A model generated the notes under the pieces. The model was not told where the DNA came from, ran no database searches, and saw only the letters and a list, made by a program, of their open reading frames with translations. Shown here in pieces: positions 1,733 through 21,240 of a stretch of DNA of 32,000 bases (within the stretch, counting starts at the first letter, position 1; every line of letters starts with the position of its first letter). This DNA comes from Candidatus Iainarchaeum sp. (GTDB taxonomy: Archaea; Iainarchaeota; Iainarchaeia; Iainarchaeales; 0-14-0-20-34-12): assembly GCA_030649345.1 (NCBI GenBank), contig JAUSKK010000042.1, forward strand, positions 14,408 through 46,407, given 5' to 3'. The position numbers and the translations under genes are program-made.

Positions 1733-4700
1733 TTATTGATCTTTTAAAGTTTTCAAAATACCAGAAAGTGTATGTGTATTTTGCTGGGTTGTCTGGCCGG
1801 TAGTGGGTGGCAAAACAGTTCCGCCTTGAGTTGCACCCATACTTGAACTAGGCTTTATCCAATTACGGTAAGCGTAAACTCTATAGGTTGTATTAGAACT
1901 TACAGGACGAGTGTCAGTAAATTTATTTGAGTTAGGCTGAGTGGCATCCAATAATTTAACAATTCCACCAGGCAAACGTCCAGATTGCCAAGATAATGAA
2001 TCTGACAGTTCATCACAACTTGGATTTCCAGAAGCAGTCAAACGATCACATCTTACTACTGCATAAGCTTGAGCATTATCAACAGCCAGCCAAGTAATCG
2101 TAGCATAATCTTCAGCTGAATTGTCAGTGAATGTATATCTGAAGTCGCCAATTACAGTACTTGCACTCAAACTAATTGACGCAAATTCAGTATGATTTCT
2201 CAATATAGCATTTGAGCCAAATTCATCAAACAATAAAACTGTAGCAAAATATCCGTGTTGTTTAGATAAGGATAATGCATTGCCTGCTTTTGAATAATTT
2301 TCTTGCATTAAATTAAAAGAATGTGTAAAAGCTAAAGAAAGAAGTTTTTCATCCAAAACTGTTTTTCTACCCACTGAACAAATATCTCCAATAGTTTTGT
2401 CATCAGATTCATCATCAGGAGTTTCATCAGCAATAACTAAATCACCCAGTGCATTCAAAGTTTCACTGTTAACAGAACTATCCAAATTAAGTTCTTGTGT
2501 GCACAATAAAGGCAAATAGTAAGCCACTGTATCAGGTTCAGGTGCAGTCCAGTCAATTTTTACACTGCCATAATCAACTGCAGTATTTGTAATTTCAAAT
2601 TCTACAACTTGTTCTTGGAATGGGACCCAAGCACTTTCACTTAAACTTTCGTAGTCTGCAGTTGTTCCATCTGGATTTGTTGGAAGAGGATTTGGATAAG
2701 CTATAACTCTATATTTTGTATTTGCATAAGGTTGATGTTGGTCTGCAGCAGCTTGTTGGCTGTTGGTTGGATCAGTAAATGGAGAACTAACATATTGTTT
2801 TTCGGTTAAGTCTATTTCTTCAGCATTTGCACAGTCACCAGAAACTGTAATACCTGCATCGCATCTAAGTACACCAAAATTGTAAGAAATATCTGGAGTT
2901 ACAGTCCATTCCAATTCAGCTGTTGTTGCGTCCGTTGAAGGAGTAACAGTTAATTCAATTGTTGGCGTTCCTGGAGCAACTCCTGTAACTGCATGCACTG
3001 TTCCAGTTAATGCAGATTCAATTATTTTTTTCTGTAAAGGAATCAAACATTCCAAGATTGTTTTACAATCAGTAGCTGGAGTTGAAGCTGGTGTTCCGCC
3101 TACTAAAGCAGGCTTTACAGAATCTAAAGCATTCGTCCAAGGACTTTGAGCAATTCTTTCGCTGCCATTATAAACATTCACAGAATAAAAAGTATTTATT
3201 GTAACTGGCGTTGCATCAAGATTTGAACTAGTAGAATCTGTTGGCGCTTCAAAATAATTCAGCCCAGAATCATCTGATTTTATTTCATAATCATGCAAGC
3301 AAGAAATAACTCCTTCTCTGCTGGCTTCACAGCGGGTCATGGAATAACTTAAATTAGGTATTTCTAGTGCAGTCCAAGACAACCTTGCTTTTTGTGCACC
3401 CTGTTCGTCTAAGCTGACTTCGATTGTTACATCCAAAACTGTTGGAACAGTATACCAGCCGTTTCCGCCTGTATGTATGTCGCCTACATTAAAGCTGTCT
3501 ACGTAATAGCTTGTTGTTTCAACAATAGGTTTGTTGTTTACAGAATCAATGAATGCAGTATAACCATCGCCTTCAGTTCTTGGGATATTTACAGCACCAC
3601 GAGTAATTGCAGTATCATTATTCATATCACAAGGAATTGAGCCATCAGTATTTACAGCATCACATCTGTAAGGTTTAAAGAATTCAACATCTGGATTGTG
3701 GGCTTTCATATACAAGCCTGCAAAAATTCCGCCATTTTGTTTGATTAAATCAATACTTAATTCTGGAATATCATCCACTCGAATCCAGTCTGGGCTTTCA
3801 GCTAAAACAGTATCCGTATCCTCTGCATTCACTGCAATTATTTTGTACGAAAACAAACCAATATTTTCTCGGCTTTTTAGTTCATCTACATTATTAACAA
3901 CAGTAATTCCGTCTGGGTCTTTAAATTCTGTTTCAGTTCCTTCCATATAATTATTCAACAAAGAAAAAGCACCATCGTACTTACCATAACCATCTTTGGA
4001 ATCACAATCACTCAACTCTTGTTCAGCACATCTAAGCACATCGTATTGCATATTTGTTAAATTATTTGAAGTCCAAGTCAAAGTAACATTTTCTTGGTCT
4101 GTTCGTTCAACTGTTAATTCAACACTCGGTGCATTGGGATCAACTTCAACAACATAATCTGTACACTTTTGAATACTGGTTCCATCATCCAATGGAATCA
4201 CTGCACATAAAGTACGATTGCCTTCACGGGTTTGTTTAAATGTTCGAGTAATGACTGGATAGTTTCCGGATGGCATGGATTCAATTTTTTCTTTAAGCAA
4301 ACCAGCATTTTTTAATTCAGAATCAGCTTGGTTTGTTTCTTTGGATTTGAATACCAGCATTACATTTTCTAAATTATCAGCTGTTTTATTGTTTAACCTA
4401 ACATGGAATTCGAGTTGCTGGCCAACATAAACGTTTGAGCCCGGAGTAATTAAGTCAATTGATGAAATTTCTACAGTGTCAGCAGTTACACTTGCACCTG
4501 AATTTTCTTCTTTTTCTGTTGGTTTTTGCCAATCGCCGGAAGTCGTTACAAGCGTCCGGGTTGCTGGATCAAATGCTCCAATTCTGTAAGAAAAATCATC
4601 GATGTTTTCTCTGGATTTTAATGCATTAAGAGCATCTGGAATATTATCTGGATCAACAAAGCTTGTTTCAGTAATAACAGTACTTTCATCTAACAAACTA

Positions 4701-7700
4701 TCAGGCCCATCATCACAGTCAGCAATATTTTCTTTTTCACACCTAAACACATTGTATTCAACATTATTCGGCATGTTTTCTGCAGTCCAAGTTAAAGTAA
4801 TTTTATCTCCTTCGCGTACAGCTTCGTCTAAAGTAAGAGTTGGTTCATCCGAAGGTTCTGGTCCGCCTACAATACTTCCGTCTACTCGAACCATTGGACT
4901 TGTTCCTAAAACAGTTCCATCTGGATCTTCTGCAGTGACTTGATATTTTGAGGCATCATTTGGGTGAGAATCTATAATGGAAGTATCATCAGTAGTTGGT
5001 TCTGCTCCATTGCGAACCAAGGGAACTAAAGGAACTAAATCATCGTCTACACAATCATTTGGATTTGGTTTATCACAGCGTACTGGTCTGAAAACATAAT
5101 CTCCTTCAGGACCCCAAGATAAATGAGCACCATCAGATTGTTTGTCTACAGTTAAAGTTACGTCTACTTCTGGCATAGTATCTGGAATAAGTCCCCAGCC
5201 GCTTTCAGCAATTGGGTTTCCGTCACCATCTTCAACCAAGACATTGTAAAATGTTTTATTGGTTGCAGTATTGGGATCAATGGCTTGAGTTACACTGCCT
5301 GAAGTAACAGGTATACTGGTTGGATTTTTTGTACAATCTGTTGAATCATCATTCATTTCATCACAGCGCACAGGATTATATTTAACGTCTGCTGGAGGAT
5401 TTTCTAAAGCAGTCCAAGTTAGTTTAGTTTTTCCGCCAAGCAAAGGAGTTATAGTTAATGTAACAACATTATTAGGATCAGCTGCAGGCAAAGCATCAGG
5501 AGTAAATGCTCCTGCATTTTTGAATAATCTAGCATAAGCTAAAACTGTGGCCACATAATCTTTGGCTTTTGCACTTAAGTTTTTACAATTTACATTTCCT
5601 GGACCATATCTGTAAGAAGCAATTACTAAAATTTCTCGCGTAGTTAAACCTAAATCTTCCAAGCCAGGCAAAGTCATTGCATTGTATTGTGGACCTTCAC
5701 ATTTCAGTCTTTGTTTTGATTTTGCATAGGTTTCAGCTGCACGCTGTAAATTAGCACCAGGAGTAGTCCATAAAGGAATATTTTCTCCAGTACACACAAC
5801 AGTATTACAGGAAAAAATTTCACTTTTAGTTGCATCCGCAGAATTAATAGTTCCAACATCAACAGCAACTACATTTCCGTGTTTCGGTTGAGATCTTTGT
5901 TCTCGCAAAGAAACGTTTATTGTTTTTAAATCATCGGCTGGATCAGGAACTTCAACTGTTTTTCCGCCAAATAAATAGTCAGCAACATCAGCAGGTCTTT
6001 GATAACCCCAAGCTAAATTAATAGTTGAAACCAGCCCCAAGCCTAAGCCAATTGGTTTTTTATCCAAACAAGCAAATGCTTGATTGTCAAATTTGGATTC
6101 AGCAGCACTAATTCCAAACAAAATAGCTGGAGGAACATCTAAACTAGGCTGATTTGAAATTGCAGTTACATTTTCAACAAATTCTGGATTTAAAACAGTT
6201 CTAGCATTTGCTGAATTAATATTTCTTCCAATTCCTGTTTCAGGACATTCTTCTCCAGTTTGACTTGAAAAATAATCATTTAATTGCATTATATTAGTTA
6301 AAGCAGGTAAATTTAATTCTCTGGATTTAGCTTCTACAGCTGGCGCAATATCTTCCAATTCTTCAGTTAACTGAGTTCTGGATCTTCCAGGCCCAATTAA
6401 TGGCGGGCCCAGATCAGCACCAGTTGGAGTTGGTCGTCTAAGTACATCTGAACCAGTTCCAGCAGGAGCAGTACCTGCACCAGCACCTGAAACACTGGCA
6501 CCAGCACCTGAAACACTAGCACTAGCTCCAGCAACAGCTGCAGCTGGGCTTGGAGGAGGAGTAGAACCAGCATCTCGAGCTTCTGTACTTGCAAGTAAAG
6601 CAGGAATATTAACCCAATCACTGGCAGTGTACAAGTTACCATTGGAAGAATCGTAAACTCCTACAGCCACTTTTTGACTGGATTGTACACCATATTCACC
6701 AGATGAATACGAAAATCCAGGCCCAGATAAAGATTGCACACCAGGAGTTATTTGCGCTTCAGTTACAGTCGTTGGAATATCAGAACAATTTCCTGTTCTG
6801 CAGGCGAATAAATAATAGTTTGGATTTGAAATTGCTGGACTTACAGCAACTGCAACAGAAATTTCATTATTTGATTCCCTAGTTGGAGTTAAAGTAACTA
6901 CTGGATTTGAAGCATTTGAAGTTGAGCTAACTGAAACCCAATTACTTTTTCCGATAAATGGACCATTAGGTAAACTTTTTGCATAAACAATGTACCCAGT
7001 AGTTCCAGAAGCATTGGCTGGTTCATAGACAGTGGAGGTTGTATCTACTTGACCATCAAAGAAAAAACTAGGGCATTCATTGTTTACAAATTCATAATAA
7101 CAAGAAAACACAGAATAATTTAGTGGTGGATAAGGTCCATCAATTGTCCAAGCTAATTGAATGCGTCCAGGATGATCTGTGCTTGGAGTTTGAGTTAAAT
7201 TAATATTAGTTGGAACGCCTTTGTTTTTTTCGTCTCCAGCTAAAGCCAACAAAGCTTTGACATCATTGCTGGTGAAAGTAAATTTACTGACAGTAACTTT
7301 TCCGTTTTGGTTGGAATATTTTAAAGTACCAGTGCCTGAAAAAACAGTAAAATCCGCACTATTTGGGTTTAAGATTCCGATAAAACTAGTTTTATCAAAA
7401 CCCAATTTGTTTGCAAATTTTTGAGGAATAGTACTCGAAACTCGATTTTCAGAAAAAGCATAAAACCAAGCATTCAGCAAATCCAATAAAGGAGTTCCAG
7501 TTGTTTGACTGCCTGGAAAAATTTTGACATTAATAACCCAAGTATCGTCTACACTGAATTCATTTACTCCAGAACCAATGTCAGTTCGCTTAAGTTGAGT
7601 TTCACTTACGTTAAATCCAGTTTCTTTAAATGAATTCAATTGATCTTCATTGTATGCCAAAGTCGTACTATAAAGTGCTGAGTTTACGCTGACTAAAAAT

Positions 7701-7747
7701 AAGAGTAAAAAAAATACTGCAATGAGATTGAAACGAACACCATTCAT
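1733..7747 (-). CDS. Giant secreted protein (2004 aa): signal peptide, one SLT-like lytic transglycosylase domain, one CARDB-like module and about 11 FN3-like modules with paired Cys
   Basis: 6 kb open frame. The track start is GTG at 7756; the first ATG is at 7747 (MNGVRFNLIAVFFLLLFLVSVNSA, signal-like). Repeating W-T/S ... Y-x-V/P-x-R-C-x(7-10)-C units (YNPVRCDEMNDDSTDC, FRPVRCDKPNPNDC, YNVFRCEKENIADC, YDVLRCAEQELSDC, and others). All 32 mature Cys occur as close pairs. No C-terminal TM segment. Confidence 0.9.
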   Translation of the reverse strand: MNGVRFNLIAVFFLLLFLVSVNSALYSTTLAYNEDQLNSFKETGFNVSETQLKRTDIGSGVNEFSVDDTWVINVKIFPGSQTTGTPLLDLLNAWFYAFSENRVSSTIPQKFANKLGFDKTSFIGILNPNSADFTVFSGTGTLKYSNQNGKVTVSKFTFTSNDVKALLALAGDEKNKGVPTNINLTQTPSTDHPGRIQLAWTIDGPYPPLNYSVFSCYYEFVNNECPSFFFDGQVDTTSTVYEPANASGTTGYIVYAKSLPNGPFIGKSNWVSVSSTSNASNPVVTLTPTRESNNEISVAVAVSPAISNPNYYLFACRTGNCSDIPTTVTEAQITPGVQSLSGPGFSYSSGEYGVQSSQKVAVGVYDSSNGNLYTASDWVNIPALLASTEARDAGSTPPPSPAAAVAGASASVSGAGASVSGAGAGTAPAGTGSDVLRRPTPTGADLGPPLIGPGRSRTQLTEELEDIAPAVEAKSRELNLPALTNIMQLNDYFSSQTGEECPETGIGRNINSANARTVLNPEFVENVTAISNQPSLDVPPAILFGISAAESKFDNQAFACLDKKPIGLGLGLVSTINLAWGYQRPADVADYLFGGKTVEVPDPADDLKTINVSLREQRSQPKHGNVVAVDVGTINSADATKSEIFSCNTVVCTGENIPLWTTPGANLQRAAETYAKSKQRLKCEGPQYNAMTLPGLEDLGLTTREILVIASYRYGPGNVNCKNLSAKAKDYVATVLAYARLFKNAGAFTPDALPAADPNNVVTLTITPLLGGKTKLTWTALENPPADVKYNPVRCDEMNDDSTDCTKNPTSIPVTSGSVTQAIDPNTATNKTFYNVLVEDGDGNPIAESGWGLIPDTMPEVDVTLTVDKQSDGAHLSWGPEGDYVFRPVRCDKPNPNDCVDDDLVPLVPLVRNGAEPTTDDTSIIDSHPNDASKYQVTAEDPDGTVLGTSPMVRVDGSIVGGPEPSDEPTLTLDEAVREGDKITLTWTAENMPNNVEYNVFRCEKENIADCDDGPDSLLDESTVITETSFVDPDNIPDALNALKSRENIDDFSYRIGAFDPATRTLVTTSGDWQKPTEKEENSGASVTADTVEISSIDLITPGSNVYVGQQLEFHVRLNNKTADNLENVMLVFKSKETNQADSELKNAGLLKEKIESMPSGNYPVITRTFKQTREGNRTLCAVIPLDDGTSIQKCTDYVVEVDPNAPSVELTVERTDQENVTLTWTSNNLTNMQYDVLRCAEQELSDCDSKDGYGKYDGAFSLLNNYMEGTETEFKDPDGITVVNNVDELKSRENIGLFSYKIIAVNAEDTDTVLAESPDWIRVDDIPELSIDLIKQNGGIFAGLYMKAHNPDVEFFKPYRCDAVNTDGSIPCDMNNDTAITRGAVNIPRTEGDGYTAFIDSVNNKPIVETTSYYVDSFNVGDIHTGGNGWYTVPTVLDVTIEVSLDEQGAQKARLSWTALEIPNLSYSMTRCEASREGVISCLHDYEIKSDDSGLNYFEAPTDSTSSNLDATPVTINTFYSVNVYNGSERIAQSPWTNALDSVKPALVGGTPASTPATDCKTILECLIPLQKKIIESALTGTVHAVTGVAPGTPTIELTVTPSTDATTAELEWTVTPDISYNFGVLRCDAGITVSGDCANAEEIDLTEKQYVSSPFTDPTNSQQAAADQHQPYANTKYRVIAYPNPLPTNPDGTTADYESLSESAWVPFQEQVVEFEITNTAVDYGSVKIDWTAPEPDTVAYYLPLLCTQELNLDSSVNSETLNALGDLVIADETPDDESDDKTIGDICSVGRKTVLDEKLLSLAFTHSFNLMQENYSKAGNALSLSKQHGYFATVLLFDEFGSNAILRNHTEFASISLSASTVIGDFRYTFTDNSAEDYATITWLAVDNAQAYAVVRCDRLTASGNPSCDELSDSLSWQSGRLPGGIVKLLDATQPNSNKFTDTRPVSSNTTYRVYAYRNWIKPSSSMGATQGGTVLPPTTGQTTQQNTHTLSGILKTLKDQ
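5522..6334 (-). other. SLT / family-1 lytic-transglycosylase-like domain of the 2004-aa protein (residues ~475-745)
   Basis: FGISAAESKFDNQAF (E-S-x-F; the Glu codon is at 6098..6100). VIASYRYGPGNVNC corresponds to the AYNxGPG motif. DYVATVLAYARLF is collinear with the SLT-like domains of the 2285-aa paralog. The GLMQ position is divergent (GLGLGLVS) and there is a long insert. Confidence 0.55.
6371..6586 (-). other. Low-complexity Ala/Gly/Ser/Pro linker (residues ~391-462), locally GC-enriched
   Basis: Encodes TEARDAGSTPPPSPAAAVAGASASVSGAGASVSGAGAGTAPAGTGS...GPPLIGPGRSR. It lies between the N-terminal FN3-like pair and the SLT-like domain. The stop-poor composition produces the spurious track ORF 6397..6642. 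Confidence 0.85.
6477..6518. repeat. 21-bp tandem repeat, 2 copies (20/21 identical)
   Basis: gcaccagcacctgaaacactg (6477..6497) followed by gcaccagcacctgaaacacta (6498..6518). Encodes SVSGAGA twice on the minus strand. Confidence 0.9.
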
Positions 7748-7897
7748 GCAATTCACTTAGTTCCGTGAGAACAATTTTTGCTATATTATACTAATATAAA
7801 GGATTATTTAAAGCTTTGCTGGAGAGATTGACAAAAGCTCAGTAAATAAATTAAGTTAATTCCAAATTCAGCCCAACCAGAAAAGAATAAAAACAGT

Positions 7898-8431: not shown

Positions 8432-8733
8432 AAGCAAACACTGTCAGTTATCCATTAAGAATTTCAGAGGAAATAATGCAGATCACTGAAATACGAAAGC
8501 GCGAAGAACATGTGGACAAAACCACAGCCTTAAGACAACTCTTGTACAAAGGAGTGGAAGACTATGTTTTGGAGTTGTATGCAAGCGGACGAATCACTCT
8601 AACTAGAACGGCAGAATTATTAAACAAAAATGTTCACGAAGTACTTCAATTGGCTGGAAAAAAAGGAGTGAAAACTGGAGCAAACTCAGAACAACAAAGG
8701 CAAAGTGCGAAAACAGCAGAAAAATTGTTCTAA
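8428..8733 (+). CDS. UPF0175-family antitoxin-like protein
   Basis: VEDYVLELYASGRITLTRTAELLNKNVHEVLQLAGKKGV matches the UPF0175 helix-turn-helix core (A.elY..g.iSlg.AAEl.g....f...l...gi). GGAGG lies 8 nt upstream. 4-nt overlap with the DUF3368-like gene. Confidence 0.7.
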   Translation: MKANTVSYPLRISEEIMQITEIRKREEHVDKTTALRQLLYKGVEDYVLELYASGRITLTRTAELLNKNVHEVLQLAGKKGVKTGANSEQQRQSAKTAEKLF

Positions 8734-8785
8734 ATTCAAAATTATTTGCCGCAAACACAGAATTGACCTAAAAAAGAGACAAATT

Positions 8786-9049
8786 ATGGCTAATAAAAAA
8801 ATTCGGATCACGCAAGAAGCCTATGATTTTTTGGCTTCACAAAAGCGCGAAAATGAAAGTTTCAGTCAAGTAATAATTCGAATATATTCTATGGATCCTG
8901 CTGGACAAAAAATGGATAATCTTAAAATTGCAGACCGGCTAGTGCAAAAAAGCCAGCTAACAAAAAAAGACGTACAAAAGCTCAGCAAAAAAGTAAACCA
9001 AGCTGCTGGAAAACATGCAAAAAAATTATTAAAAAGTTTAAAAAACTAA
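8786..9049 (+). CDS. COG1753/PF02697-type antitoxin-like protein (87 aa) with no adjacent PIN partner
   Basis: The ATG at 8786 gives MANKKIRITQEAYDFLASQKRENESFSQVIIRI. This is collinear with the VapB at 24052 (MAKLIAVSEPAYQELKNLKKENESFSKVILRL). The Lys-rich C-terminal tail differs. The track ORF 8705..9049 looks like an N-terminal over-extension. Confidence 0.6.
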   Translation: MANKKIRITQEAYDFLASQKRENESFSQVIIRIYSMDPAGQKMDNLKIADRLVQKSQLTKKDVQKLSKKVNQAAGKHAKKLLKSLKN

Positions 9050-9059
9050 TTCTAAAAAA

Positions 9060-9671
9060 TTAGCAGGTTTGTCTTAATTGATTAATGCCTGTTTGAGATT
9101 GAGCTAAATTATCCTGCAATACTTGTTCGTCTACAATAAAATTAGAAACTTCAGCGGTTACAGCTTGCGCAGGATAAGCCGATTGAATGGCTTGAACTTT
9201 AGCATTGACAGCCAAAGACTTATTCACAGTCTCAACTGTCTTGGCATGGGTTTGTTCAAACAAACTTAAACTCGGACACGGATTGGAAATAACTGCATCC
9301 AATTGATTGCTGGCTTTCAAAGAATTATATCTTGCTTGAGTTGAGTCAACCAACAATAAATGCAAATCAGTTAATTCTAAAATCGCTTGTTTGTCTTGTT
9401 CGTTTACAAATTTTTTTCCAGAAATTTCTGTTTTAAAATCCTGCAAAGCTTGCTTGACTTCCGTAAAATTTTCATTAGAGTATTCCAATAATTGTTCTCC
9501 GATTACAGCAAAACTAAAACTTCGGGTAATTCGAATATTATCCAATTGGTCAAATGCATTTGTAAAAGTCAACGGAGGTACTGGAAGAGTTTGAGCTGGC
9601 TGGAATACAAATACATAAGCCAAAACAGCGACTACAACTAAAACCAATAAGATTGCGAATTTGTTTGCCAT
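9060..9671 (-). CDS. Membrane-anchored coiled-coil protein, paralog A (203 aa)
   Basis: ATG at 9671. Single N-terminal TM segment (FAILLVLVVVAVLAYVFVF), then a Gln/Leu-rich helical region. Two Cys (NPCPSL and the C-terminal RQTC). Collinear with 17252..17848. Confidence 0.8.
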   Translation of the reverse strand: MANKFAILLVLVVVAVLAYVFVFQPAQTLPVPPLTFTNAFDQLDNIRITRSFSFAVIGEQLLEYSNENFTEVKQALQDFKTEISGKKFVNEQDKQAILELTDLHLLLVDSTQARYNSLKASNQLDAVISNPCPSLSLFEQTHAKTVETVNKSLAVNAKVQAIQSAYPAQAVTAEVSNFIVDEQVLQDNLAQSQTGINQLRQTC

Positions 9672-10102: not shown

Positions 10103-10345
10103 TTAACGCGCCAATTTTTTTAAGCGATTAAATTGCACTTGAATTGGAATCAAAATCTTCTCAGTTTTTTGCCCGCGTTTTTTTAAATTAAAAATAGCGA
10201 TTCCGATTACATTTCCTTTGGAATCTACGCGTTCAAAAACGTCATTTCCCAAGTCACGAAAAAAGCCTTTCCGATTAGAAGCTGAAAATTCCAAAAAGTC
10301 ACTTTCAGTATCCAACCAAACTTGAAGTTTTCCATTCGCTTTCAT
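10103..10345 (-). CDS. DUF2283-family (YuzE-like) antitoxin-like protein (80 aa)
   Basis: MKANGKLQVWLDTESDFLEFS...VFERVDSKGNVIGIAIFNLKK matches the DUF2283 pattern (...y d.e.D.lyi......vv.Dld.eG.vvGIEIl..s). The track start at 10363 is TTG; the first ATG is at 10345. Confidence 0.7.
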   Translation of the reverse strand: MKANGKLQVWLDTESDFLEFSASNRKGFFRDLGNDVFERVDSKGNVIGIAIFNLKKRGQKTEKILIPIQVQFNRLKKLAR

Positions 10346-10362
10346 AGTTATATTATACAACA

Positions 10363-10386
10363 AAACTTATTTTTAAAGCTTGGGTT
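10363..10386 (-). promoter_or_regulatory. BRE/TATA-like promoter for the DUF2283 cassette; second copy of the 24-bp direct repeat
   Basis: Identical to 9693..9716. It abuts and overlaps the first base of the stop codon of the 2285-aa gene (10386..10388). The TATA-like core lies about 20-33 nt upstream of the ATG at 10345. Confidence 0.5.
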
Positions 10387-13300
10387 TATTTCAAACCAGT
10401 CTTACGCCAACTGGTTTCAGCTAAAACAAGACCGCGTACATCGCTGGCTACAACTTTAACAAAATAATCTTGGGTTCGGTCAGGCAAAACAAAACTATAG
10501 TCTGTTTCGTTCAAAAATTGATTTTCAATTTTGCACGCCCCTTCAACATTTGAATTCAAAGTACGCAATGATTGACCACGCTTCAAGTTCCGTAAAAGCA
10601 ATGCTTGAATGTCTTGCTCGGTTAATTGAGGCGTAGTATGACACCACCAGATGTCATAATTAATATTTTCTTCTGGATTCCAGGCAGTCCAATACAAAGA
10701 CACAGTAAACTGAGTTGGATCACTTGCAATGGATTCAACATTCAAAGTAGTAATATTCAAGCTGGCTTGTTTGCGTTCAATAAATAAACTGCGAATAATG
10801 TTTTCATTTCCGTATTGAATACATTGCAACAAAGAAGTACATTGTCTTTTTTGTTTAAATTCATAGGGCAATTCAATAATGGAAGAATGCGTCCAATCTG
10901 AACCATTTGGTTTACAGCCTAATTTTGGACAAATGGAAACACTTAACCACAAATTAGGTTCAGTGTAATCTTTCAATGCTTGTTCTAACGTTTTGATTTC
11001 GTTTCCAATTTTTACATTCTGCGTTGGACTATACTTGAATGTTTTAATTTGTTCTTGGTTTGCTTGAATTGCTTTGGGGGGTGAAGAAATAAATTGCTGT
11101 AAATTTAGTCTATCCGCGCCCCAGTTTCTTTCAGCAGTTTTCCATAAATCAATAGAGTAATTGTAAAAATCACACGTTGAATTGAATTGGATTTTCAATT
11201 CTTGTTCTTGAGATAATTTTCCAGTCAAATTATTTAATTCAGAAACATTTGTGATTGTGACAGTACAAGAAGAATTTTCTGAATTGACTTGGGTTGGAGC
11301 TTGAACAAAGTCTGAAACTTTTAAGGTTTCTTTAATATCTGAATCTATTTTGGCTGAATCTACAACACGCAAGGCTTGAATTTTGTAAAATAAATTACCA
11401 GAAGCAGAATTATGCACAGATTCTGTTTCAGTAGTTCGAGTGAGTTCAGTTAGCTTATCATCACTGCAGTTTTCAACACTAGATTCAGTACAAACCAAAA
11501 CAGAATATTGGTTGGCTAAAGGAACTGTTGGCCAACGTAATTCAACAATTAAGCTATGAGTTCGTTTGGCTTTGACAATAAAAGCTAAATCATTTAATTG
11601 TTCTCGCAATGTTTGACAGCGTTCTCTGATTTTTTGTTTCACGTCATCATTGCCAGTAATTGCGGCCAGTTGTTCTTCTAGGTTTAAAGGACACGAATCC
11701 AGTAAACCCAATAATAAAGCGCGTTGTTCTTCCGGCAAACTTAATGCACTGATTTCTTGTTTTAAAGAATCAGCTGTAATGATTACATCCAAGCATTTTT
11801 CTTCTGTGGTTCCAGAAATGCGGGCACAAATTCTATGCTGGCCTTCTTTGAGTCTTCCAGTTAAACCTGGAGCTAAAGTAACAGTTTGAGATTCTGAAAT
11901 ATCAATAGGCTGAGTTAAATAAGATGAAATATTCAAAGATTGGCCGTCAGCAAATAATTCAACTCCAGCTTCTCCTATGAATTTAATGCTTCCAGCGTTT
12001 TCCAATTCAACACGTGCTTCCAGGAAAGCATCGGCCGCAATATTGGGAAAAGGAATTAATGTAAATGATTTAACTTTCAAGTCAGTTTTTTCTGCACTTA
12101 AAGGAATGGGTTGTGCAAAATTAATTTCTGAAAAAGTTTGCTTCCAGCCAAATACATTTTGAACATAATTCAGCAAAGAATCTCCGCCTACATCAGAGCT
12201 AACTTTCAATAAATATCCTGCACCTCGATTGCCATTGTAAGGTGTTAATACAAAATGCGCACTAGCATTTGGATCGGCACAATTCATGTGTTCAATCGGT
12301 GTTGTGCCCAGTCCTTGATCGGATGCAATGCTTAAAACTTCTACAAAAGAAACTCCAGGCAATCCTTCGACTTGTTTGCGTAAAATTGCTTTACAAGGAT
12401 TTTCTGGAAGTACGGATTCAGCAAAGTTTTTAACTAATTTCATGTTTCCAGTTAAGTTTGCAATTCCGACAGTTAAATTTTCTTCAGGATTTGTTTTTGC
12501 GGTTTCTGCTTGAGTATTCAAATAATAAAAAGGCAATTGCATTAAACCGTAATTTCCCATTTCTGGACTTGGAGATGAATGGGTTTCAATTTTGCCGGCA
12601 TCAAAAGAAGGATTGCGGACCATAATCATGGCGGCAATTAAGTCTTTGGCTTTATTGGAAAAAACATGTTCATTGTCAAGTGATTCACTTAATTTTTGAA
12701 TTGCTTGACCATATTTGATAGCTTGTTGTGCCTGGTAATAATCATACTGGTTTGAAGTTTTTCCTGTTTCAATCAATGAATGCAAAGACTGAATGCTTCC
12801 ATTAAATTGTAAATACAAAGTAGCTGTATTTGTGCTTAATCTAGGAATTAAAAAGTCTGGAACTACAGGCACTGAAATCCATTCAGTTACTGCAACTAAA
12901 ATTTGATCTGAATTGTAGGCAAATAATTTGTAAAATTTTACGCTTACAGCTTCATTTAATCCAATGGAATAATTTCGAATAACTGGTTCATTAATTAATT
13001 GAACTTGAGTTCCAGAACCGCACAATAAATCATTGGTTTCTTTACAAGAACTTAGTTTAAAAGATTTAATGGAACTATCCAAAACTGCTGGCAAACCAGT
13101 ACTCCAGTCAAAACTTAAATTTTCAGTGTCCAGCCAGCGAAGATTCATAGAAGCTTTTGGCACTTCTGCTAATTGAACTTTAGAAGAAGCCAATATAGGT
13201 TCGCGTACTTTACCTAAAGATTCGTGTAGTTTATATCGAATAGCTTGAACATAATACACTGGCAAAAAATCTTCGTCAGATAATTCAGAATCAGAATAAA

Positions 13301-16300
13301 CTAAATTGGTTTGAGTGGAAAGCAATTCAAAGTTTGCAGTATCCAAACATTCAGTTATTCCAGCAGCACAACGATATACTTCGTAGCTTTCAGCTTGCGG
13401 ATGCTTGCTCCAAGTCAATTGCATAGAATCATTCAGTAAACGATTTACGTTTAATCTAAAATCAAATCTGCTTAATTCGTCTCTTAGTTTTATGCAATTT
13501 GCTTTAATTTTTTCTTTCAATGCAGTGAAATCTGTATTTGGATATTTTCGTGTAAGGTCTAAAAATACAGTATCTAAATCACTTTCAGAGGCAGGGCAAG
13601 CAATTGTAAGATTGGCTAAAGCTTCTCGGTCTATGGGTTGAATCGGCAAACGTGCAATCTCCGGAGCTAGTTCAGCTATAGGTGAAGGTTTGGGAACAAT
13701 TTCCACTGCAGGCAAACAGGATTGAATAGTAGTTTCATAGTCTTTGACTTTAGCGCAAATTAAAATATTGGTTAAAGATTGAGTTAAACCTTTTTCTTCA
13801 ATGGATTCAGGAGTCTGCGGTGCTTGATATAGGTGAGTCAATAGTCCTTGATCCAATTTAACTTTGGCAACAGGACCAGTGTGTTGTTGGGTTGATTCCA
13901 AAACTGAAACCAATTCTTGCGATACCACAGTAGATCCAATGTTTAATTGAATTACGGCATTTTCTAAATTTACTGAACCATTGTTTTGAATTGAAATTGA
14001 AAATTCTTGTTCTGAATCTTCTTCAAGTTGGTTGCTTGCAGGAATTGATGAACTATTCAAAGTCAATAAAACTTGTCTGGGGTCAAATGCAGGCAAAGGT
14101 TTTACTGGAACAATAGTCCAAGAACTTTGAGCTATCACTTGATTGCTTGAATTCAGTGCTTGAATTTTGTAAAAATTTTTAACTTCACTTGCTGGAATAC
14201 CAAAAGTTAAAGCATTGGGATCTGAAATAATTTCTGGCGGAATTTGAGTAAGCGAACATTCACTTGCATTGATTTTGTCACAAGTTAAAATTTGAAATGT
14301 TTGCATTTGTGGTTTAAGTAAAAGATCGTATTGCCAATGTAAGCTTAAATCACCTGAAGAAATCCATTCAGAGCTTAAAGTCATATCTGAAACAGGTAAT
14401 GCTTGAGGTGGAACTGTGCGTTCTTGTTCGAGTCTTTCTTGTTCTTTGAAATAATTTTCAAATAAAACTTTCCAAGCTAAAACTCGAATGGCATAATAAT
14501 GATCTCCACCAGCAGTACTTTGTACAATTTTCTGGCCTTTTTGTGCACCTTTTCCATAAGACACACAATCTGTTCCAGCTGGACCCCAATTGTAGCCATT
14601 GACTGCCAAAGCTTCATGCATGGTAATTCCGTATTCTTCTAAGCCTGCAATCAAACCATACGTATTTTCGCATTTGTTGTAAACAGTAGCTGTTTGCTGG
14701 GGTTTATAGCCAGGGTATGCTGACAAGTAAGCAATTAAAAAATTGGTTCCTTTTTCCATATTTTTTTCTGGATTTTGTTTAGTTCGTTCAGTTAAAACAG
14801 GCCCAATATTGAATCCATTAAAGTGAGTAGAATTAAACGACAAGCGAGCAATATGCATTAAACCATAAGATTGCTGCCTAGGCTCTAAGCCTGCACTTTC
14901 ATTGGCTGAATTTTTTTCAAAATTGCTTTCTTGTTTAATCACTCCAGCCAATAATGATTTGCCGGAATTTCGAATTACAGTTCCAACTTCTTCCTGCAAA
15001 CGTGCTCCATGTAAAATCACTAAATCGCGCACTTGTTTGGATGCATGGGTCCAAGTGCGTTCCACATTTTCTGAAGTAAAAGTTCCTCCAGCAAATGGTC
15101 CACTGCGAATAATTTCTCGAATAACTGTATCCAGTCTTTTTACTTTTCCATCCGGTGTATCCACGTAAACAATATTGGACTGCAATGTTGCTGGATCTGT
15201 AGCTGTTTCAACTGAACAAGATTTAATCGCTGGATCTGAAACCAATACTGCACAAATATTAATGGACCGGCGCAATAAAAACAAACCACTGCCGTGATAC
15301 CAAAAGGGCTCGGAAAATTCTTGTCCTGCCTTTACAGTTGCTTCGCTTTTTTTAATATCAACACCATTAATAGTAAATTTTACTTGGATGTCTTGAGATT
15401 GTAAAGAATTCAATTGAGCCCGCATGGAAAACTTTTGGCCTGGAACAATTATTTCCGGCGCCAAAACAACAGCTTGAATAGCCAAAGGAGGAATTGCAAC
15501 TTGAACAGTTAATGGACCAGTGCAAAATTCTTGGTCTGGATTTTTAATTTGAGCACACAATTCATAACTTCCTGAAGTTACGGAAGGCAAAGTGCTTAGA
15601 TCAATACTGGAAGGAACACCAACTTGTTTTTGAGCTTCAAGTGTATCCATTTCATAACTGGCTAATTGAGCACGAACTGTTCCTTCTTTTTTCAAAACTA
15701 AATTTACTTGCGGAGTCACAGAATTTTCAGTTAAATTTTTCACAGTAGTTGTAATATTAAATCCTGTTCCAGCTACAATGGGCTCAGTGAAACTCAATTG
15801 AATATCTAAAGCTTTGGCTGGAGCTCCTGAGCCAGCAGAGGCTGAAGTAGCTGAAGCTTTTTGAGCATTTTGATTGGCTAAATTTTTTAATATTTCTGCT
15901 TTGATAGTTTGAAGTTTTGCAGGATCTTTCATTTCAACTTTAGCCAAATTTGCAACCCAATACTTTGCAAAACCAATCAATGGAACTTTGCTGACTGAAA
16001 AAGTATAATCCAACAAACCATCGGAAACCGTCATGGATTGTCGACCAGTGTAAGACCACACGGATTGACCAGCACCAGTGTCACTTGGATACGGAACTAA
16101 AGGAAAATTAGGAACTTGAATTCCTTGAGTGGAAAAATTAATTTGAGTTTGAGTTGAATAAACATAAAATTCGTCTGGCGCTTGCAGACAATCTTGGCCA
16201 AAATAGTTTTCACAAACTGAAAAGTAAACAATAATTTTGGCATCTTCTGAAAAACCATTTTGACTTGAAAAAAATACTTCTTGAGTACTGAGATTGTCTT

Positions 16301-17243
16301 GTCTTAAATTAAACGAAACTGGAACAGTTTGATTTTTGAAATTTTTGGATTCATCGCGATAACCATTCCAAGATTTAATTAAAAAAACACTAATTGGGTC
16401 TTGTTCAACAACTGCTGGTTCAGGAGTAGCTACTGGCTCTCCAGGCAATGGTTCAGAAGAAGGAGCTTCAGGATATAAATCTGCACATGAAAATCCTGTG
16501 GTTTCAAAATTAACTTCCGTTTCACAGGTTTCTTTAGAATAAATACTTGAAAATAAAGAATGTGTAAATAAGCCAATATTTTCCCAGTTAAATTCAGGAG
16601 ACGGATCCCATTTACGGTCGTCAGCTTTTCGCGTACCTGCATTGCATGTTTCATAAAATCCAGCAGAAGGTTCTAATTCATAATGACCGCGAACAAGAGT
16701 ATTGGCAATATTAAATTTATTTTGATAAATTTGCTGGAAATATGTAAATAAAGAATTCAATTGAGCATACTGTTGAACAGTATATTCTTCTCCTTTTCTT
16801 CCAGAATTTTCCAATTCAATTCCAATGGATAATTGTTCCATTGAATCTAAACTTTGCAAATCAGAAACAAATTGAGTATTGTTGGCACACGCAGAAGTAT
16901 TTTGCCCAGAACCTTTTAAATGATCTGCAACTTTTTCTAAATCACAAATATAATGAATGGTTCCATCTTTAGCAATCAAAAGATGAGCAGAAGTTCTATT
17001 TTGTTTAAATAAACGCAAAGAATTTGCAGTATCTGTTCCAGTATGATGCAAGACAACTGTTACTGAATCCGTAAAGTTTGCAGGCGTTCGATTAAATCCT
17101 GCTTTCGGATTAGAACACAAAAATCCTTCGGTTCTATGATCTTGAACATTTAAAACAGAGGGAAGTAAATCAATGGCAAAAATTGAAACAGAAAACAAGA
17201 ACAAAATTGAGAAAACCAATGCCAAGCGAAGAAAAGGTTTCAT
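10386..17243 (-). CDS. Giant secreted multi-domain murein-hydrolase-like protein (2285 aa): signal peptide, Amidase_2, two SLT-like domains, CARDB-like and FN3-like modules
   Basis: 6.9 kb open frame. The track start is GTG at 17261; the first ATG at 17243 gives MKPFLRLALVFSILFLFSVSIFA. See the domain sub-features. Cys occur in close pairs inside modules (YEVYRCAAGITEC, SSCKETNDLLC, VLVCTESSVENC, LCAQIKNPDQEFC, ICAVLVSDPAIKSC). No C-terminal TM segment. Confidence 0.9.
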   Translation of the reverse strand: MKPFLRLALVFSILFLFSVSIFAIDLLPSVLNVQDHRTEGFLCSNPKAGFNRTPANFTDSVTVVLHHTGTDTANSLRLFKQNRTSAHLLIAKDGTIHYICDLEKVADHLKGSGQNTSACANNTQFVSDLQSLDSMEQLSIGIELENSGRKGEEYTVQQYAQLNSLFTYFQQIYQNKFNIANTLVRGHYELEPSAGFYETCNAGTRKADDRKWDPSPEFNWENIGLFTHSLFSSIYSKETCETEVNFETTGFSCADLYPEAPSSEPLPGEPVATPEPAVVEQDPISVFLIKSWNGYRDESKNFKNQTVPVSFNLRQDNLSTQEVFFSSQNGFSEDAKIIVYFSVCENYFGQDCLQAPDEFYVYSTQTQINFSTQGIQVPNFPLVPYPSDTGAGQSVWSYTGRQSMTVSDGLLDYTFSVSKVPLIGFAKYWVANLAKVEMKDPAKLQTIKAEILKNLANQNAQKASATSASAGSGAPAKALDIQLSFTEPIVAGTGFNITTTVKNLTENSVTPQVNLVLKKEGTVRAQLASYEMDTLEAQKQVGVPSSIDLSTLPSVTSGSYELCAQIKNPDQEFCTGPLTVQVAIPPLAIQAVVLAPEIIVPGQKFSMRAQLNSLQSQDIQVKFTINGVDIKKSEATVKAGQEFSEPFWYHGSGLFLLRRSINICAVLVSDPAIKSCSVETATDPATLQSNIVYVDTPDGKVKRLDTVIREIIRSGPFAGGTFTSENVERTWTHASKQVRDLVILHGARLQEEVGTVIRNSGKSLLAGVIKQESNFEKNSANESAGLEPRQQSYGLMHIARLSFNSTHFNGFNIGPVLTERTKQNPEKNMEKGTNFLIAYLSAYPGYKPQQTATVYNKCENTYGLIAGLEEYGITMHEALAVNGYNWGPAGTDCVSYGKGAQKGQKIVQSTAGGDHYYAIRVLAWKVLFENYFKEQERLEQERTVPPQALPVSDMTLSSEWISSGDLSLHWQYDLLLKPQMQTFQILTCDKINASECSLTQIPPEIISDPNALTFGIPASEVKNFYKIQALNSSNQVIAQSSWTIVPVKPLPAFDPRQVLLTLNSSSIPASNQLEEDSEQEFSISIQNNGSVNLENAVIQLNIGSTVVSQELVSVLESTQQHTGPVAKVKLDQGLLTHLYQAPQTPESIEEKGLTQSLTNILICAKVKDYETTIQSCLPAVEIVPKPSPIAELAPEIARLPIQPIDREALANLTIACPASESDLDTVFLDLTRKYPNTDFTALKEKIKANCIKLRDELSRFDFRLNVNRLLNDSMQLTWSKHPQAESYEVYRCAAGITECLDTANFELLSTQTNLVYSDSELSDEDFLPVYYVQAIRYKLHESLGKVREPILASSKVQLAEVPKASMNLRWLDTENLSFDWSTGLPAVLDSSIKSFKLSSCKETNDLLCGSGTQVQLINEPVIRNYSIGLNEAVSVKFYKLFAYNSDQILVAVTEWISVPVVPDFLIPRLSTNTATLYLQFNGSIQSLHSLIETGKTSNQYDYYQAQQAIKYGQAIQKLSESLDNEHVFSNKAKDLIAAMIMVRNPSFDAGKIETHSSPSPEMGNYGLMQLPFYYLNTQAETAKTNPEENLTVGIANLTGNMKLVKNFAESVLPENPCKAILRKQVEGLPGVSFVEVLSIASDQGLGTTPIEHMNCADPNASAHFVLTPYNGNRGAGYLLKVSSDVGGDSLLNYVQNVFGWKQTFSEINFAQPIPLSAEKTDLKVKSFTLIPFPNIAADAFLEARVELENAGSIKFIGEAGVELFADGQSLNISSYLTQPIDISESQTVTLAPGLTGRLKEGQHRICARISGTTEEKCLDVIITADSLKQEISALSLPEEQRALLLGLLDSCPLNLEEQLAAITGNDDVKQKIRERCQTLREQLNDLAFIVKAKRTHSLIVELRWPTVPLANQYSVLVCTESSVENCSDDKLTELTRTTETESVHNSASGNLFYKIQALRVVDSAKIDSDIKETLKVSDFVQAPTQVNSENSSCTVTITNVSELNNLTGKLSQEQELKIQFNSTCDFYNYSIDLWKTAERNWGADRLNLQQFISSPPKAIQANQEQIKTFKYSPTQNVKIGNEIKTLEQALKDYTEPNLWLSVSICPKLGCKPNGSDWTHSSIIELPYEFKQKRQCTSLLQCIQYGNENIIRSLFIERKQASLNITTLNVESIASDPTQFTVSLYWTAWNPEENINYDIWWCHTTPQLTEQDIQALLLRNLKRGQSLRTLNSNVEGACKIENQFLNETDYSFVLPDRTQDYFVKVVASDVRGLVLAETSWRKTGLK
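12117..12749 (-). other. SLT-like domain 2, residues ~1505-1715, with a non-canonical catalytic motif
   Basis: NYGLMQLPFYY is conserved and LLNYVQNVFGWKQTF is collinear with domain 1. The E-S-x-F position reads VRNPSF (12603..12620), so there is no Glu. Confidence 0.5.
14457..15029 (-). other. SLT lytic-transglycosylase-like domain 1, residues ~745-935
   Basis: AGVIKQESNFEKNS (the Glu codon at 14928..14930 checked by hand), SYGLMHIA, ALAVNGYNWGPAGTDC, HYYAIRVLAWKVLF. Confidence 0.7.
16587..17078 (-). other. N-acetylmuramoyl-L-alanine amidase (Amidase_2/PGRP-like) domain, residues ~62-225
   Basis: VVLHHTG (17037..17057 checked by hand), SAHLLIAKDGTIHY, SIGIELENSG, YTVQQYAQLNSLFTYF, VRGHYELEP. 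The order and spacing are typical of AmpD / T7-lysozyme / PGRP zinc amidases. Confidence 0.7.
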
Positions 17244-17251: not shown

Positions 17252-17848
17252 TCACCCACACAAAGCTTTTAATTCGTTCACTTGTTCCTGTGAAGAGATA
17301 ATCAAGTTTTGGAGTATTCTTGTTTCGGTTTGTAAATCCAGTAAGGAAAGCTCAGCAGCTTGCGCAGAATATTGTGTTTCAAATTCATTAATTTTTTGGT
17401 TCAAAGCAAGAGTTTTAGAAAACACTTCTTCGAGTACTGTTTGTCTTTCTTCAAATTTAGAAATATTCACACAAATTTGCTCTGAGCTTATTTCGTCTAA
17501 TTCAAAATTGAGTTTAGCTAAATTTTTTCTAGATTGAGTTTTTTCTGCATTCAATAAATAAATATCCGTTAACATAACAACTGAAGGACTGCTTGAATTT
17601 TGAGTTTTATAGGTTTGCAGAGATTGGATTAATTTAGTTAAACCAGAATCTTGTACTTGAATTAAGTCAAAATCAGTTAGTACAAATTCTATTTGGTTTT
17701 CAGAATAAAAAAACGCAATCTTTGCTTGAGTTTCTGTAATGGATTTAGGTTGAATGCCAGAAAAAAGAGTGGAAAGATACGGAAATGCTAAATACAAAAT
17801 TCCAATAAGAACTAAAACAAGGATTAGGTTTTTCCAGCGGTTTTCCAA
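17252..17848 (-). CDS. Membrane-anchored coiled-coil protein, paralog B (198 aa)
   Basis: N-terminal TM segment (LILVLVLIGILYLAFPYL), then a helical Gln/Leu/Glu-rich region. Two Cys (EQICVN and the C-terminal KALCG). Only a TTG start is available at 17848. The stop is 8 nt before the ATG of the 2285-aa gene. Confidence 0.75.
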   Translation of the reverse strand: MENRWKNLILVLVLIGILYLAFPYLSTLFSGIQPKSITETQAKIAFFYSENQIEFVLTDFDLIQVQDSGLTKLIQSLQTYKTQNSSSPSVVMLTDIYLLNAEKTQSRKNLAKLNFELDEISSEQICVNISKFEERQTVLEEVFSKTLALNQKINEFETQYSAQAAELSLLDLQTETRILQNLIISSQEQVNELKALCG

Positions 17849-17904: not shown

Positions 17905-18318
17905 CTACTTAAATGGGTTAATAACTTCAATTCCGGAAAATTGGTTAAAATCTTTTTCATTTTCAGTAAATATTTTTGTAACACCCTGTTCTAACATAGT
18001 AAAATAAATCAATAAATCCCAAAAATCATGCTTAGGGTTATCTTTTTGAATAACATTCCAAACAGTATTCTCAGAATATGAAATTTTAATCCAGTTGGAA
18101 GACTTAAGAACAGCCAATGCAACCAATTTTGCATTTTCAAGCTGTTCCATGGTTAATTTGCGTTTGCACAGATAATAAAATTCAGAAACATTCTGAGTTG
18201 AAATATAAGCATTTTCTTTAAAGCCTTTTTTTACAAGCTCTTTGGCAATTTTATGCTTTCGAGAATCCGAATTATCCAGAGCATAAAACAAAATATTGGT
18301 ATCAATGAGTGCGTTCAT
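17905..18318 (-). CDS. vapC: PIN-domain ribonuclease toxin VapC
   Basis: MNALIDTNILFYAL, NVSEFYY, FWDLLIYF, FTENEKDF. The ATG at 18318 is preferred over the track GTG at 18327. 17-nt overlap with the upstream RHH gene. Confidence 0.85.
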   Translation of the reverse strand: MNALIDTNILFYALDNSDSRKHKIAKELVKKGFKENAYISTQNVSEFYYLCKRKLTMEQLENAKLVALAVLKSSNWIKISYSENTVWNVIQKDNPKHDFWDLLIYFTMLEQGVTKIFTENEKDFNQFSGIEVINPFK

Positions 18319-18541
18319 GAAGTTCACTTCGAGTTTTGTATCGCAAATTTGAAACTTTCATTCCTTTTTCAATTACAGACAAAGCTTGGTCAATTACAGT
18401 GTCTTTTTCATTTAACCAGACAGAAAAGGCTTCGCTTACAGCTTTAGCCAAATAACCTTTCTTTTTGCCGTATTTTTCTTCCGCTTTTTTTCTAAATTGG
18501 TCAGCTAACTCTTCAGATATATTCAAAGTAATCGTATGCAT
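18302..18541 (-). CDS. vapB: Ribbon-helix-helix (CopG/VapB-type) antitoxin
   Basis: MHTITLNISEELADQFRKKAEEKYGKKKGYLAKAVSEAFSVWL fits a beta-strand plus two helices RHH pattern. It lies directly upstream of the PIN gene and overlaps it. Confidence 0.75.
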   Translation of the reverse strand: MHTITLNISEELADQFRKKAEEKYGKKKGYLAKAVSEAFSVWLNEKDTVIDQALSVIEKGMKVSNLRYKTRSELHERTH

Positions 18542-21200: not shown

Positions 21201-21240
21201 AAGATTTAGGTGGAAAAATTACTTGCTGAGAGAGGAATGT

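Follow-up and report, generated by a model that had tools for sequence, protein, structure and literature searches.

We analysed a window of 32,000 nucleotides from a 46,407-bp Candidatus Iainarchaeum contig (JAUSKK010000042.1, positions 14,408 to 46,407) and found that one of its genes encodes a 2285-aa protein in which a peptidoglycan amidase domain and two domains of the lytic-transglycosylase type are joined to a long array of repeat modules. We read this protein, with a probability of about 0.68, as a Sec-exported surface or extracellular protein of ~250 kDa that belongs to a Diapherotrites-labelled DPANN archaeon and would act on bacterial peptidoglycan (murein). Action on bacterial murein is the most economical reading because the enzyme domains are real, the protein looks exported and the contig is archaeal. 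The protein is identical to NCBI entry MDO8428676.1, annotated as 'MAG: N-acetylmuramoyl-L-alanine amidase [Candidatus Diapherotrites archaeon]' (MAG, metagenome-assembled genome). A preliminary description of this DNA had proposed that the archaeon attaches to, breaches or feeds on bacteria. No other reading of the protein is better supported than this proposal, yet the idea is not novel, having been published before (PMC8204110, PMC9723730, PMC10936187).

Catalytic domains and giant paralogues

The N-terminal domain was recognized by Pfam as Amidase_2 (PF01510) with 57 bits against a gathering score of 26 (E 3e-15), while the NCBIfam AmpD model matched it under its cutoff (E 1.5e-7). In a sequence search of the PDB the nearest solved structures were Pseudomonas AmpDh2 (E 5e-5) and then AmpD. 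We aligned the domain with 71 relatives obtained from exhaustive and word-index searches. The protein keeps all near-invariant positions of this alignment (H66, H67, T68, H87, G94, H108, G141, E143, N146, Q158, Y159, H187, K211, D213, P214, F218 and W220), and H66/H67, H87, H108, E143, H187, K211 and D213 all lie in columns with a conservation of at least 90%. By analogy with AmpD, we take H66 or H67, H187 and D213 to be the zinc ligands and E143 and K211 to be the catalytic residues. The Amidase_2/PGRP motif series noted in the preliminary description was thus confirmed at the level of both the family score and the active-site residues, and the amidase looks catalytically intact.

The first lytic-transglycosylase domain (SLT1) was likewise borne out, with 42.3 bits for Pfam PF01464 on residues 759-860 against a gathering score of 21.3 (E 6e-11). 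It retains the catalytic pair E772-S773, the YGLMH motif at 793 and a GYNWGP motif, and on these residues it looks catalytically intact. The second, SLT-like copy (SLT2) was not detected by Pfam; PF01464 reports one stretch in the protein, which is SLT1. SLT2 matched SLT1 in BLASTP at E 9e-5, and a Smith-Waterman alignment was co-linear over ~190 residues with a score of 70, compared with 32.8 ± 5.4 for shuffled sequences; none of 2000 shuffles reached 70. This alignment takes in both cysteines and the C-terminal GGD...W-K..F block. By the BLASTP and Smith-Waterman alignments SLT2 is a genuine full-length paralogue of SLT1. At the position of the catalytic Glu, however, SLT2 carries Asn1544 (MIMVRNPSF), so that E-S is replaced by N-P, and BLASTP, MAFFT and Smith-Waterman agree on this placement. 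SLT2 is therefore probably non-catalytic, and we read it as a probable glycan-binding pseudo-enzyme; for its lysozyme-like fold, which is putative, hhalign gave E 0.0017 with a probability of 15%. The second copy claimed in the preliminary description is real as a homologue but has lost its catalytic Glu, and because of this loss the chain would hold two catalytic activities and not the 'two or three' suggested there. Sequence searches of the PDB with SLT1 alone and with a profile of the SLT paralogues gave no match.

Two giant paralogues of this gene are encoded within ~17 kb. One of them, a predicted secreted protein of 2007 aa, contains an SLT-like domain at ~514-753, one CARDB-like module and ~10 FN3-like modules that have an R-C-x(6-9)-C loop. 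Its SLT-like domain keeps the Glu (AAESKF) and matches a hidden Markov model (HMM) of the SLT domains at E 2.7e-10, with YGLMQ changed to GLGLV; Pfam detected no domain in this protein. The other paralogue is the next gene on the contig and encodes 1735 aa with a signal peptide, SLT motifs that include the catalytic Glu (NEASFE, YGIMQIN; sub-threshold in Pfam) and FN3-like Cys-loop modules. It ends in a Peptidase_M23 domain (E 1e-24) in which the canonical HxH reads PHLD, one His being replaced by Asp. A scan of GTDB genomes for this protein gave no match. Of the 14 kb of contig outside the window, the analysis covered ~1.5 kb on the left (L003). With their SLT-like domain in one case and SLT plus M23 in the other, the two giant neighbours strengthen the reading of action on murein. 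Taken by their domains, the three apparently secreted giant paralogues of this contig would supply enzymes against all three kinds of murein bond (glycan, amide and peptide).

Export signals and repeat modules

The gene is open without interruption from its ATG, and the frame remains open 5' of this ATG as far as a GTG at 17261. Over the whole chain, Kyte-Doolittle hydropathy (19-residue window) exceeds 2.0 only within residues 1-33, and no hydrophobic C-terminal segment or anchor was found. Both the signal-like N-terminus and the lack of a membrane anchor given in the preliminary description therefore hold. The paralogous giant neighbours have N-termini of a similar style, ending in VFA and NSA. 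The protein contains 40 cysteines and 34 N-X-S/T sequons, compared with 21.8 ± 3.9 in shuffled sequences, and this combination is compatible with an exported archaeal glycoprotein. From its sequence, the protein looks exported.

A leaderless start had been suggested for genes of this region. For the giant gene the suggestion fails, as a Shine-Dalgarno-like GGTGAT motif lies 7 nt 5' of the ATG and the preceding open reading frame (ORF) stops 8 nt before it. Because its stop lies so close to the ATG, this 198-aa ORF is probably co-transcribed and translationally coupled with the giant gene. The 198-aa ORF (17252-17848, -) and a 203-aa ORF (9060-9671, -) are paralogues of each other (phmmer E 6e-20) and flank the giant gene on both sides; in each product an N-terminal transmembrane (TM) helix is combined with a helical ectodomain, and there are two Cys. 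Judged by their position, these small membrane proteins might tether or chaperone the giant protein. Small membrane proteins beside giant genes in other DPANN loci showed no detectable relation to the two ORFs.

Between and behind the enzyme domains the chain is built from repeats, and self-BLASTP revealed internal duplications of 917-1049 with 1330-1462 (E 2e-10) and of 1162-1298 with 1805-1924 (E 3e-7). An FN3 HMM seeded with the repeats of the neighbouring 2007-aa ORF alone recovered five modules. For module 1, an AlphaFold2 (AF2) model from a 12-sequence paralogue alignment reached a pLDDT of 89.7, and Foldseek against the PDB returned mostly FN3 domains (E 1e-3 to 1e-2, TM-score 0.5-0.66), among them neogenin, integrin beta4, DCC and chitinase A1. 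In the model, the FN3 beta-sandwich fold of this module is thus confirmed. A profile of the FN3 modules also placed FN3 domains on top in the PDB, yet at E 0.25-2.4, and Pfam fn3 (PF00041) matched none of 12 modules at E<=1. The four CARDB-like modules (~100 aa) find one another in leave-one-out HMM searches (E 1e-5 to 5e-4). Pfam CARDB (PF07705) scored best on module 3, with 15.6 bits against a gathering score of 22.7; of five modules tested singly, this was the one to reach E 0.001. The CARDB-like profile had no meaningful match in the PDB. The modules counted in the preliminary description (at least four CARDB-like and five FN3-like) were hence recovered by HMM, as four and five, with the fold modelled for FN3 module 1, whereas the Pfam checks proposed for them gave no match for PF00041 and a sub-threshold one for PF07705. 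A tight Cys pair said to close every module does so in the CARDB-like ones, where C-x(10-12)-C stands at the module end (pairs 11-13 residues apart). In the FN3-like modules the pair instead sits in a mid-domain loop, 7-8 residues apart (36 in the last module), and does not close the module. Residues ~265-480 and ~1970-2165 were assigned to no domain. Positions of all domains are listed in Table 1.

Two further repeat elements were observed. A helical linker of ~50 residues is duplicated at residues 1200-1260 and 1835-1885 (window ~13464-13646 and ~11589-11741); each copy carries a single Cys pair as a staple (C1216/C1250 and C1851/C1876) and lies between a CARDB-like and an FN3-like module. 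A junction motif, C-x5-C...(I/K)II.S.(F/L), is common to the three paralogues and is found upstream of FN3-like modules, as CTSLLQCIQYGNENIIRSLF / CKTILECLIPLQKKIIESAL / CDTVIDCVLSGNKIIISKLF. It is located at ~2135-2155 in the 2285-aa protein (before the last module), at ~1564-1585 in the 2007-aa protein and at ~1122-1142 in the 1735-aa protein.

Table 1. Positions of the giant gene, its predicted domains and associated genes in the window.
Feature	Position	Strand	Basis
Whole gene, 2285-aa predicted secreted multidomain protein (mature ~251 kDa, pI 5.1)	10386..17243	-	one uninterrupted ORF from ATG
Predicted Sec-type signal-like peptide, residues 1-23 (MKPFLR + hydrophobic core + SIFA|ID)	17175..17243	-	hydropathy
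Amidase_2 (AmpD/AmpDh-type zinc N-acetylmuramoyl-L-alanine amidase), residues 62-215	16599..17060	-	Pfam PF01510
CARDB-like module 1, residues 480-582 (Cys563/Cys574)	15498..15806	-	HMM; no own Pfam match
CARDB-like module 2, residues 586-681 (Cys664/Cys676)	15201..15488	-	HMM
SLT/GH23 lytic-transglycosylase domain 1 (SLT1), residues 736-945	14409..15038	-	Pfam PF01464 and alignment with paralogues
FN3-fold module 1, residues 955-1045 (Cys988/Cys996 loop)	14109..14381	-	HMM, AF2, Foldseek
CARDB-like module 3, residues 1059-1183 (Cys1163/Cys1176)	13695..14069	-	HMM; sub-threshold Pfam CARDB
FN3-like module 2, residues 1263-1356 (Cys1292/Cys1299)	13176..13457	-	HMM
FN3-like module 3, residues 1365-1458 (Cys1400/Cys1408), duplicate of module 1	12870..13151	-	HMM, self-BLASTP
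SLT-like domain 2 (SLT2), diverged SLT1 paralogue, residues 1501-1725, YGLMQ at 1565	12069..12743	-	alignments to SLT1
CARDB-like module 4, residues 1721-1824 (Cys1806/Cys1817)	11772..12083	-	HMM, self-BLASTP
FN3-like module 4, residues 1890-1969 (Cys1918/Cys1926)	11337..11576	-	HMM
FN3-like module 5, C-terminal, residues 2170-2282 (Cys2201/Cys2237), no anchor after	10398..10736	-	HMM
Upstream 198-aa ORF, N-terminal TM helix and helical ectodomain	17252..17848	-	stop 8 nt before ATG of the giant gene
Paralogous 2007-aa predicted secreted giant (G2007)	1733..7756	-	BLASTP against the 2285-aa protein, E 1e-11
Paralogous 1735-aa giant, MDO8428666.1 (P0058), next gene on contig	start ~16, running leftward off the window; L003:2283-3791	-	

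Substrate, relatives and origin of the contig

The mechanism we propose starts from a Sec-exported protein, probably N-glycosylated and disulfide-stabilised, whose ~9 Ig-like beta-sandwich modules (five of FN3 fold, four CARDB-like) would form an extended stalk together with the two Cys-stapled helical linkers. At the N-terminal tip of this stalk, the AmpD/AmpDh-type zinc amidase would cut the amide bond between N-acetylmuramic acid (MurNAc) and L-Ala. SLT1, carried on the stalk, would cut the beta-1,4 bond between MurNAc and N-acetylglucosamine (GlcNAc), and SLT2, its catalytic Glu lost, would most likely serve as a module that binds glycan strands. In combination with the two giant paralogues (SLT-like in one, SLT plus M23 endopeptidase in the other), all three bond classes of murein could be cut. 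In this way the archaeon would attach to bacterial cells, breach them locally, or feed on them or on their wall debris.

Several points weigh against this mechanism. The enzymatic activity on murein is predicted from sequence comparison. Divergence of the SLT domains is so strong that a phmmer search of 1.84 billion representatives returned no bacterial SLT. Chitin-like glycans can be substrates of GH23 enzymes, and the substrate of the SLT domains here may have drifted. Pfam found no LysM, PG_binding, SH3 or similar wall-binding domain in the protein, and the missing C-terminal anchor leaves retention at the cell unexplained. The AF2 model of SLT2, built from a 3-sequence paralogue alignment, had a pLDDT of 33 and was not used as evidence. 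The CARDB-like identity of the four modules is plausible on the basis of their profiles, and their fold is putative. Finally, any host or prey of this archaeon is hypothetical, and murein synthesis genes may lie elsewhere in a genome of which our view covers 46 kb.

Some of these points would fit a role in nutrition, not attack. If the protein were shed, it could free muropeptides and amino sugars from necromass for import by an auxotrophic archaeon; the lack of both a C-terminal anchor and a known cell-wall-targeting domain agrees with this, as does the published characterisation of DPANN as scavengers of cellular compounds (PMC9723730, PMC10936187). We nevertheless consider it unlikely. For an enzyme that diffuses freely, a 250-kDa stalk of ~9 Ig-like modules plus a pseudo-enzyme binder would be a costly design. 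The gene is also in tight coupling with that of a small membrane-anchored protein, a type IV pilus-like ATPase operon lies nearby, and no muropeptide transporter or catabolic genes were seen within the window.

If, instead, the catalytic domains had been re-purposed, the protein would be mainly an adhesin, with domains that address a non-murein substrate or bind in a lectin-like manner. Candidate substrates are chitin-like polymers, the glycans of glycoproteins, and envelope glycans, either those of this archaeon or those of its archaeal host. Among the GH23 and PGRP families there are members that do not act on murein or have no catalytic activity. The two enzyme domains of the giant protein lie extremely far from their bacterial homologues in sequence, one SLT copy is apparently already without catalysis, and cultured DPANN known so far have archaeal hosts (PMC8204110). 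We rate re-purposing as slightly less probable than a nutritional role. The amidase retains all its zinc ligands and catalytic residues, and SLT1 its E-S pair, which argues for selection on catalysis, and the presence of Amidase_2, SLT and M23 together on one contig is hard to fit to any other single substrate.

The distribution of relatives bears on whether the protein belongs to an archaeon at all. An exhaustive phmmer search with residues 1-1200 against 1.84 billion representative proteins (E<1e-3) gave 71 matches, all but one on the amidase region only; the exception was the neighbouring 1735-aa giant. Because of this restriction, the full-length architecture is an orphan. A full-length word-index homology search found the protein itself alone, and the same search with the amidase domain gave two matches. 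Those amidase relatives that have names belong to Woesearchaeota or Nanoarchaeia, and on contigs of the relatives there are ribosomal proteins of archaeal type together with TFIIB, Spt4 and Rpb7. The pairing of amidase and SLT, too, occurs on archaeal contigs with ribosomal proteins. Large relatives measure 946, 1269, 1324 and 1990 aa, and SLT is fused to Amidase_2 in four relatives. The motif [KE]WDPSPNF, which marks the amidase subfamily, was also searched in the genomes of 185,579 GTDB species. All 20 confirmed loci were in archaeal MAGs, mostly with DPANN labels (Nanoarchaeia, Woesearchaeota, Nanoarchaeota, Micrarchaeota), plus five named 'uncultured Methanosarcinales archaeon'. An SLT domain was found in the same ORF at 4/20 loci and in an adjacent ORF at 2/20. 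The Methanosarcinales label of the five loci (L011, L012, L015, L022, L025) may be a placeholder or a mislabel of co-assembled MAGs. On two other archaeal MAG contigs (L004:10001-19317 and L002:368-9833), giant Amidase_2 proteins adjoin or are fused with SLT and are flanked by more ORFs of >1000 aa, including a 1888-aa ORF in L002; the subsequent ORFs (L002_250 and L004_252) encode TM helices at both N- and C-termini.

If the contig were bacterial, for example from the Candidate Phyla Radiation (CPR, Patescibacteria), or an assembly chimera, the protein would be an ordinary autolysin. Low G+C, a small-looking genome and abundant toxin-antitoxin modules are also features of CPR, and a MAG label is only as reliable as its binning. 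Such an origin is very unlikely because archaeal-type genes stand on both sides of the giant gene, namely an XPD helicase with DEAD_2/HBB domains, a PAC2 protein and a FlaI-type ATPase, because G+C is uniform over the window (0.31-0.40), and because the left end of the window, with its junction, recurs at 100% identity in an independent Logan assembly (SRR13727527). Every XPD relative with a name is archaeal; Ca. Diapherotrites sequences rank first (46-48% identity), ahead of Pacearchaeota, Micrarchaeota and Iainarchaeum. The archaeal genes on contigs of amidase relatives and the archaeal assignment of 20/20 motif loci point the same way. The flanking XPD, PAC2 and VapB genes of the preliminary description were confirmed by domain searches, its archaeal-looking genome held up, and the murein-containing CPR bacterium that it had named as a counter-case was not borne out. 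From these genes, the contig is archaeal (DPANN) and not CPR. In the published literature we found no support for murein or pseudomurein synthesis by DPANN, and hence none for an autolysin role. Least probable is a provirus or mobile element with the protein in viral lysis or entry, for although the neighbourhood is rich in toxin-antitoxin genes, as in variable islands, tblastn against 50,697 phage genomes gave no match, the window holds no capsid, terminase or integrase families, and a signal peptide, giant size and three paralogues are unlike endolysins.

Other genes of the window were noted alongside. Dense toxin-antitoxin-type genes (three PIN, VapB (PF02697), UPF0175 and DUF2283; positions 931-1353, 8428-9049, 10103-10363, 17905-18327 and 24292-24681) lie among the giant genes, and their density suggests a variable genomic island. 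At 21223-23995 (+) a FlaI/TadA-type secretion ATPase (best NCBIfam model archaellum ATPase FlaI, under cutoff) precedes two ORFs for polytopic membrane proteins, of which one is T2SSF-like, so that a type IV pilus-like assembly system lies near the giant surface proteins. An orphan 1594-aa ORF at 26670-31454 (-) begins with a signal-like N-terminus and then a linker rich in (GT)n, is hydrophobic internally at ~990-1020 and ends in a TM anchor; Pfam and NCBIfam gave no match for it, and it is not similar to any of the three SLT giants.

It is tempting to view the contig as a locus for attack on bacteria, made up of the three paralogues with their pseudo-SLT binder, a tethering membrane protein, the 1594-aa giant and a pilus-like motor, and forming an apparatus of the Diapherotrites lineage that is independent of the Woesearchaeota and Pacearchaeota proteins. 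We regard this wider claim as doubtful. If it were true, it would imply cross-domain episymbiosis or predation by a Diapherotrites lineage, a group without an earlier tie to murein degradation. If the enzymes act on murein, a Diapherotrites-labelled DPANN lineage would join the archaea that physically engage bacteria. A single contig with an amidase, an apparently active and an apparently dead SLT and an M23 domain in a paralogue is an unusually complete set for testing the long-standing proposal that some DPANN live as episymbionts or predators on bacteria and not on archaea. The KWDPSPNF amidase subfamily, found in the genome scan only in archaeal MAGs, could mark this lifestyle. The current picture is unchanged, since both published work and NCBI annotation already contain the concept and fusions of a related kind.

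Comparison with known systems

Two wall-cutting activities in one secreted chain are also found in staphylococcal Atl, an amidase-glucosaminidase. A very long Ig-/FN3-like chain that serves to reach another cell is known from the Aureispira grappling-hook protein GhpA (PDB 9flp), which was among the Foldseek matches. Neither has a sequence relationship to the giant protein beyond common domain folds. The Gram-negative amidases AmpD, AmpDh2 and AmpDh3 (PDB 4bj4, 1j3g) share with it the Amidase_2 family, the His/His/Asp zinc pattern and the Glu/Lys pair, at a sequence similarity of ~25-30 bits. The giant protein differs from them by a 22-residue insertion between His187 and the K-x-D motif, and in that they are small recycling or remodelling enzymes for the producer's own wall.

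Modular peptidoglycan hydrolases were reported in ~5% of archaeal genomes, foremost Nanoarchaeota, by Strock et al. 2025, who found two haloarchaeal enzymes to be bactericidal (PMC12352652). Their screen required a Pfam wall-binding domain, and because the present protein has none it would have been missed. Like it, the M23 proteins of Halogranum salarium from that study are archaeal and secreted, carry murein-specific catalytic domains and were read as anti-bacterial; the 1735-aa paralogue carries M23 as well. They are small, have a canonical PG_binding_1 domain and are of recent bacterial origin, whereas the giant protein belongs to a deeply diverged DPANN-specific lineage and has no Pfam wall-binding domain.

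The closest amidase relatives found all come from DPANN MAGs. Several are fusions of SLT and Amidase_2 in MAGs of Woesearchaeota and Nanoarchaeia, so that a fusion of amidase and SLT is not unique to the giant protein. The fusions comprise proteins of 1269 aa (P0024), 546 aa (P0048, MDD5133209.1) and 685 aa (P0014/P0207), with further fusions at loci L013, L017, L018 and L023. These fusions have the same KWDPSPNF-type Amidase_2 subfamily as the giant protein, at 28-36% identity. In them SLT is followed by a C-terminal amidase, whereas here the amidase is N-terminal, right after the signal peptide, and the Cys-loop FN3 and CARDB-like modules were not detected in them.

Woesearchaeota AR20 is reportedly an earlier case of a giant protein of this kind, noted by Castelle in 2015. 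Castelle et al. 2021 described giant extracellular murein-like lytic transglycosylases of up to 3,000 aa in DPANN (fam00969), for which they proposed binding or degradation of bacterial walls, and referred to earlier sightings by Rinke 2013 and Castelle 2015 (PMC8204110). A 'vampiristic' Woesearchaeota model was built on such genes by Vigneron et al. 2022 (PMC9723730), and a study of oxygen-deficient zones (ODZ) again reported such DPANN proteins (PMC10936187). We found no published paper that ties Diapherotrites to peptidoglycan amidases, and a literature search with the accessions of the run and of the proteins had no result.

Giant murein-hydrolase proteins and amidase-SLT fusions are thus already known in DPANN. 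The present protein resembles the giants of Castelle et al. 2021 in its DPANN host, giant size, apparent secretion, SLT/GH23 domain and otherwise unannotated repeats, and the same role in binding or degrading bacterial walls is proposed for it; its likeness to fam00969 is in these described traits. It differs from them in lying on a Diapherotrites-labelled contig, in its N-terminal Amidase_2 domain and in a second SLT copy that appears catalytically dead. Besides these, what is new is the orphan full-length architecture, the lineage-specific Cys-loop FN3 and CARDB-like modules, and a putative toolkit of three paralogues for three murein bonds on one contig of this lineage.

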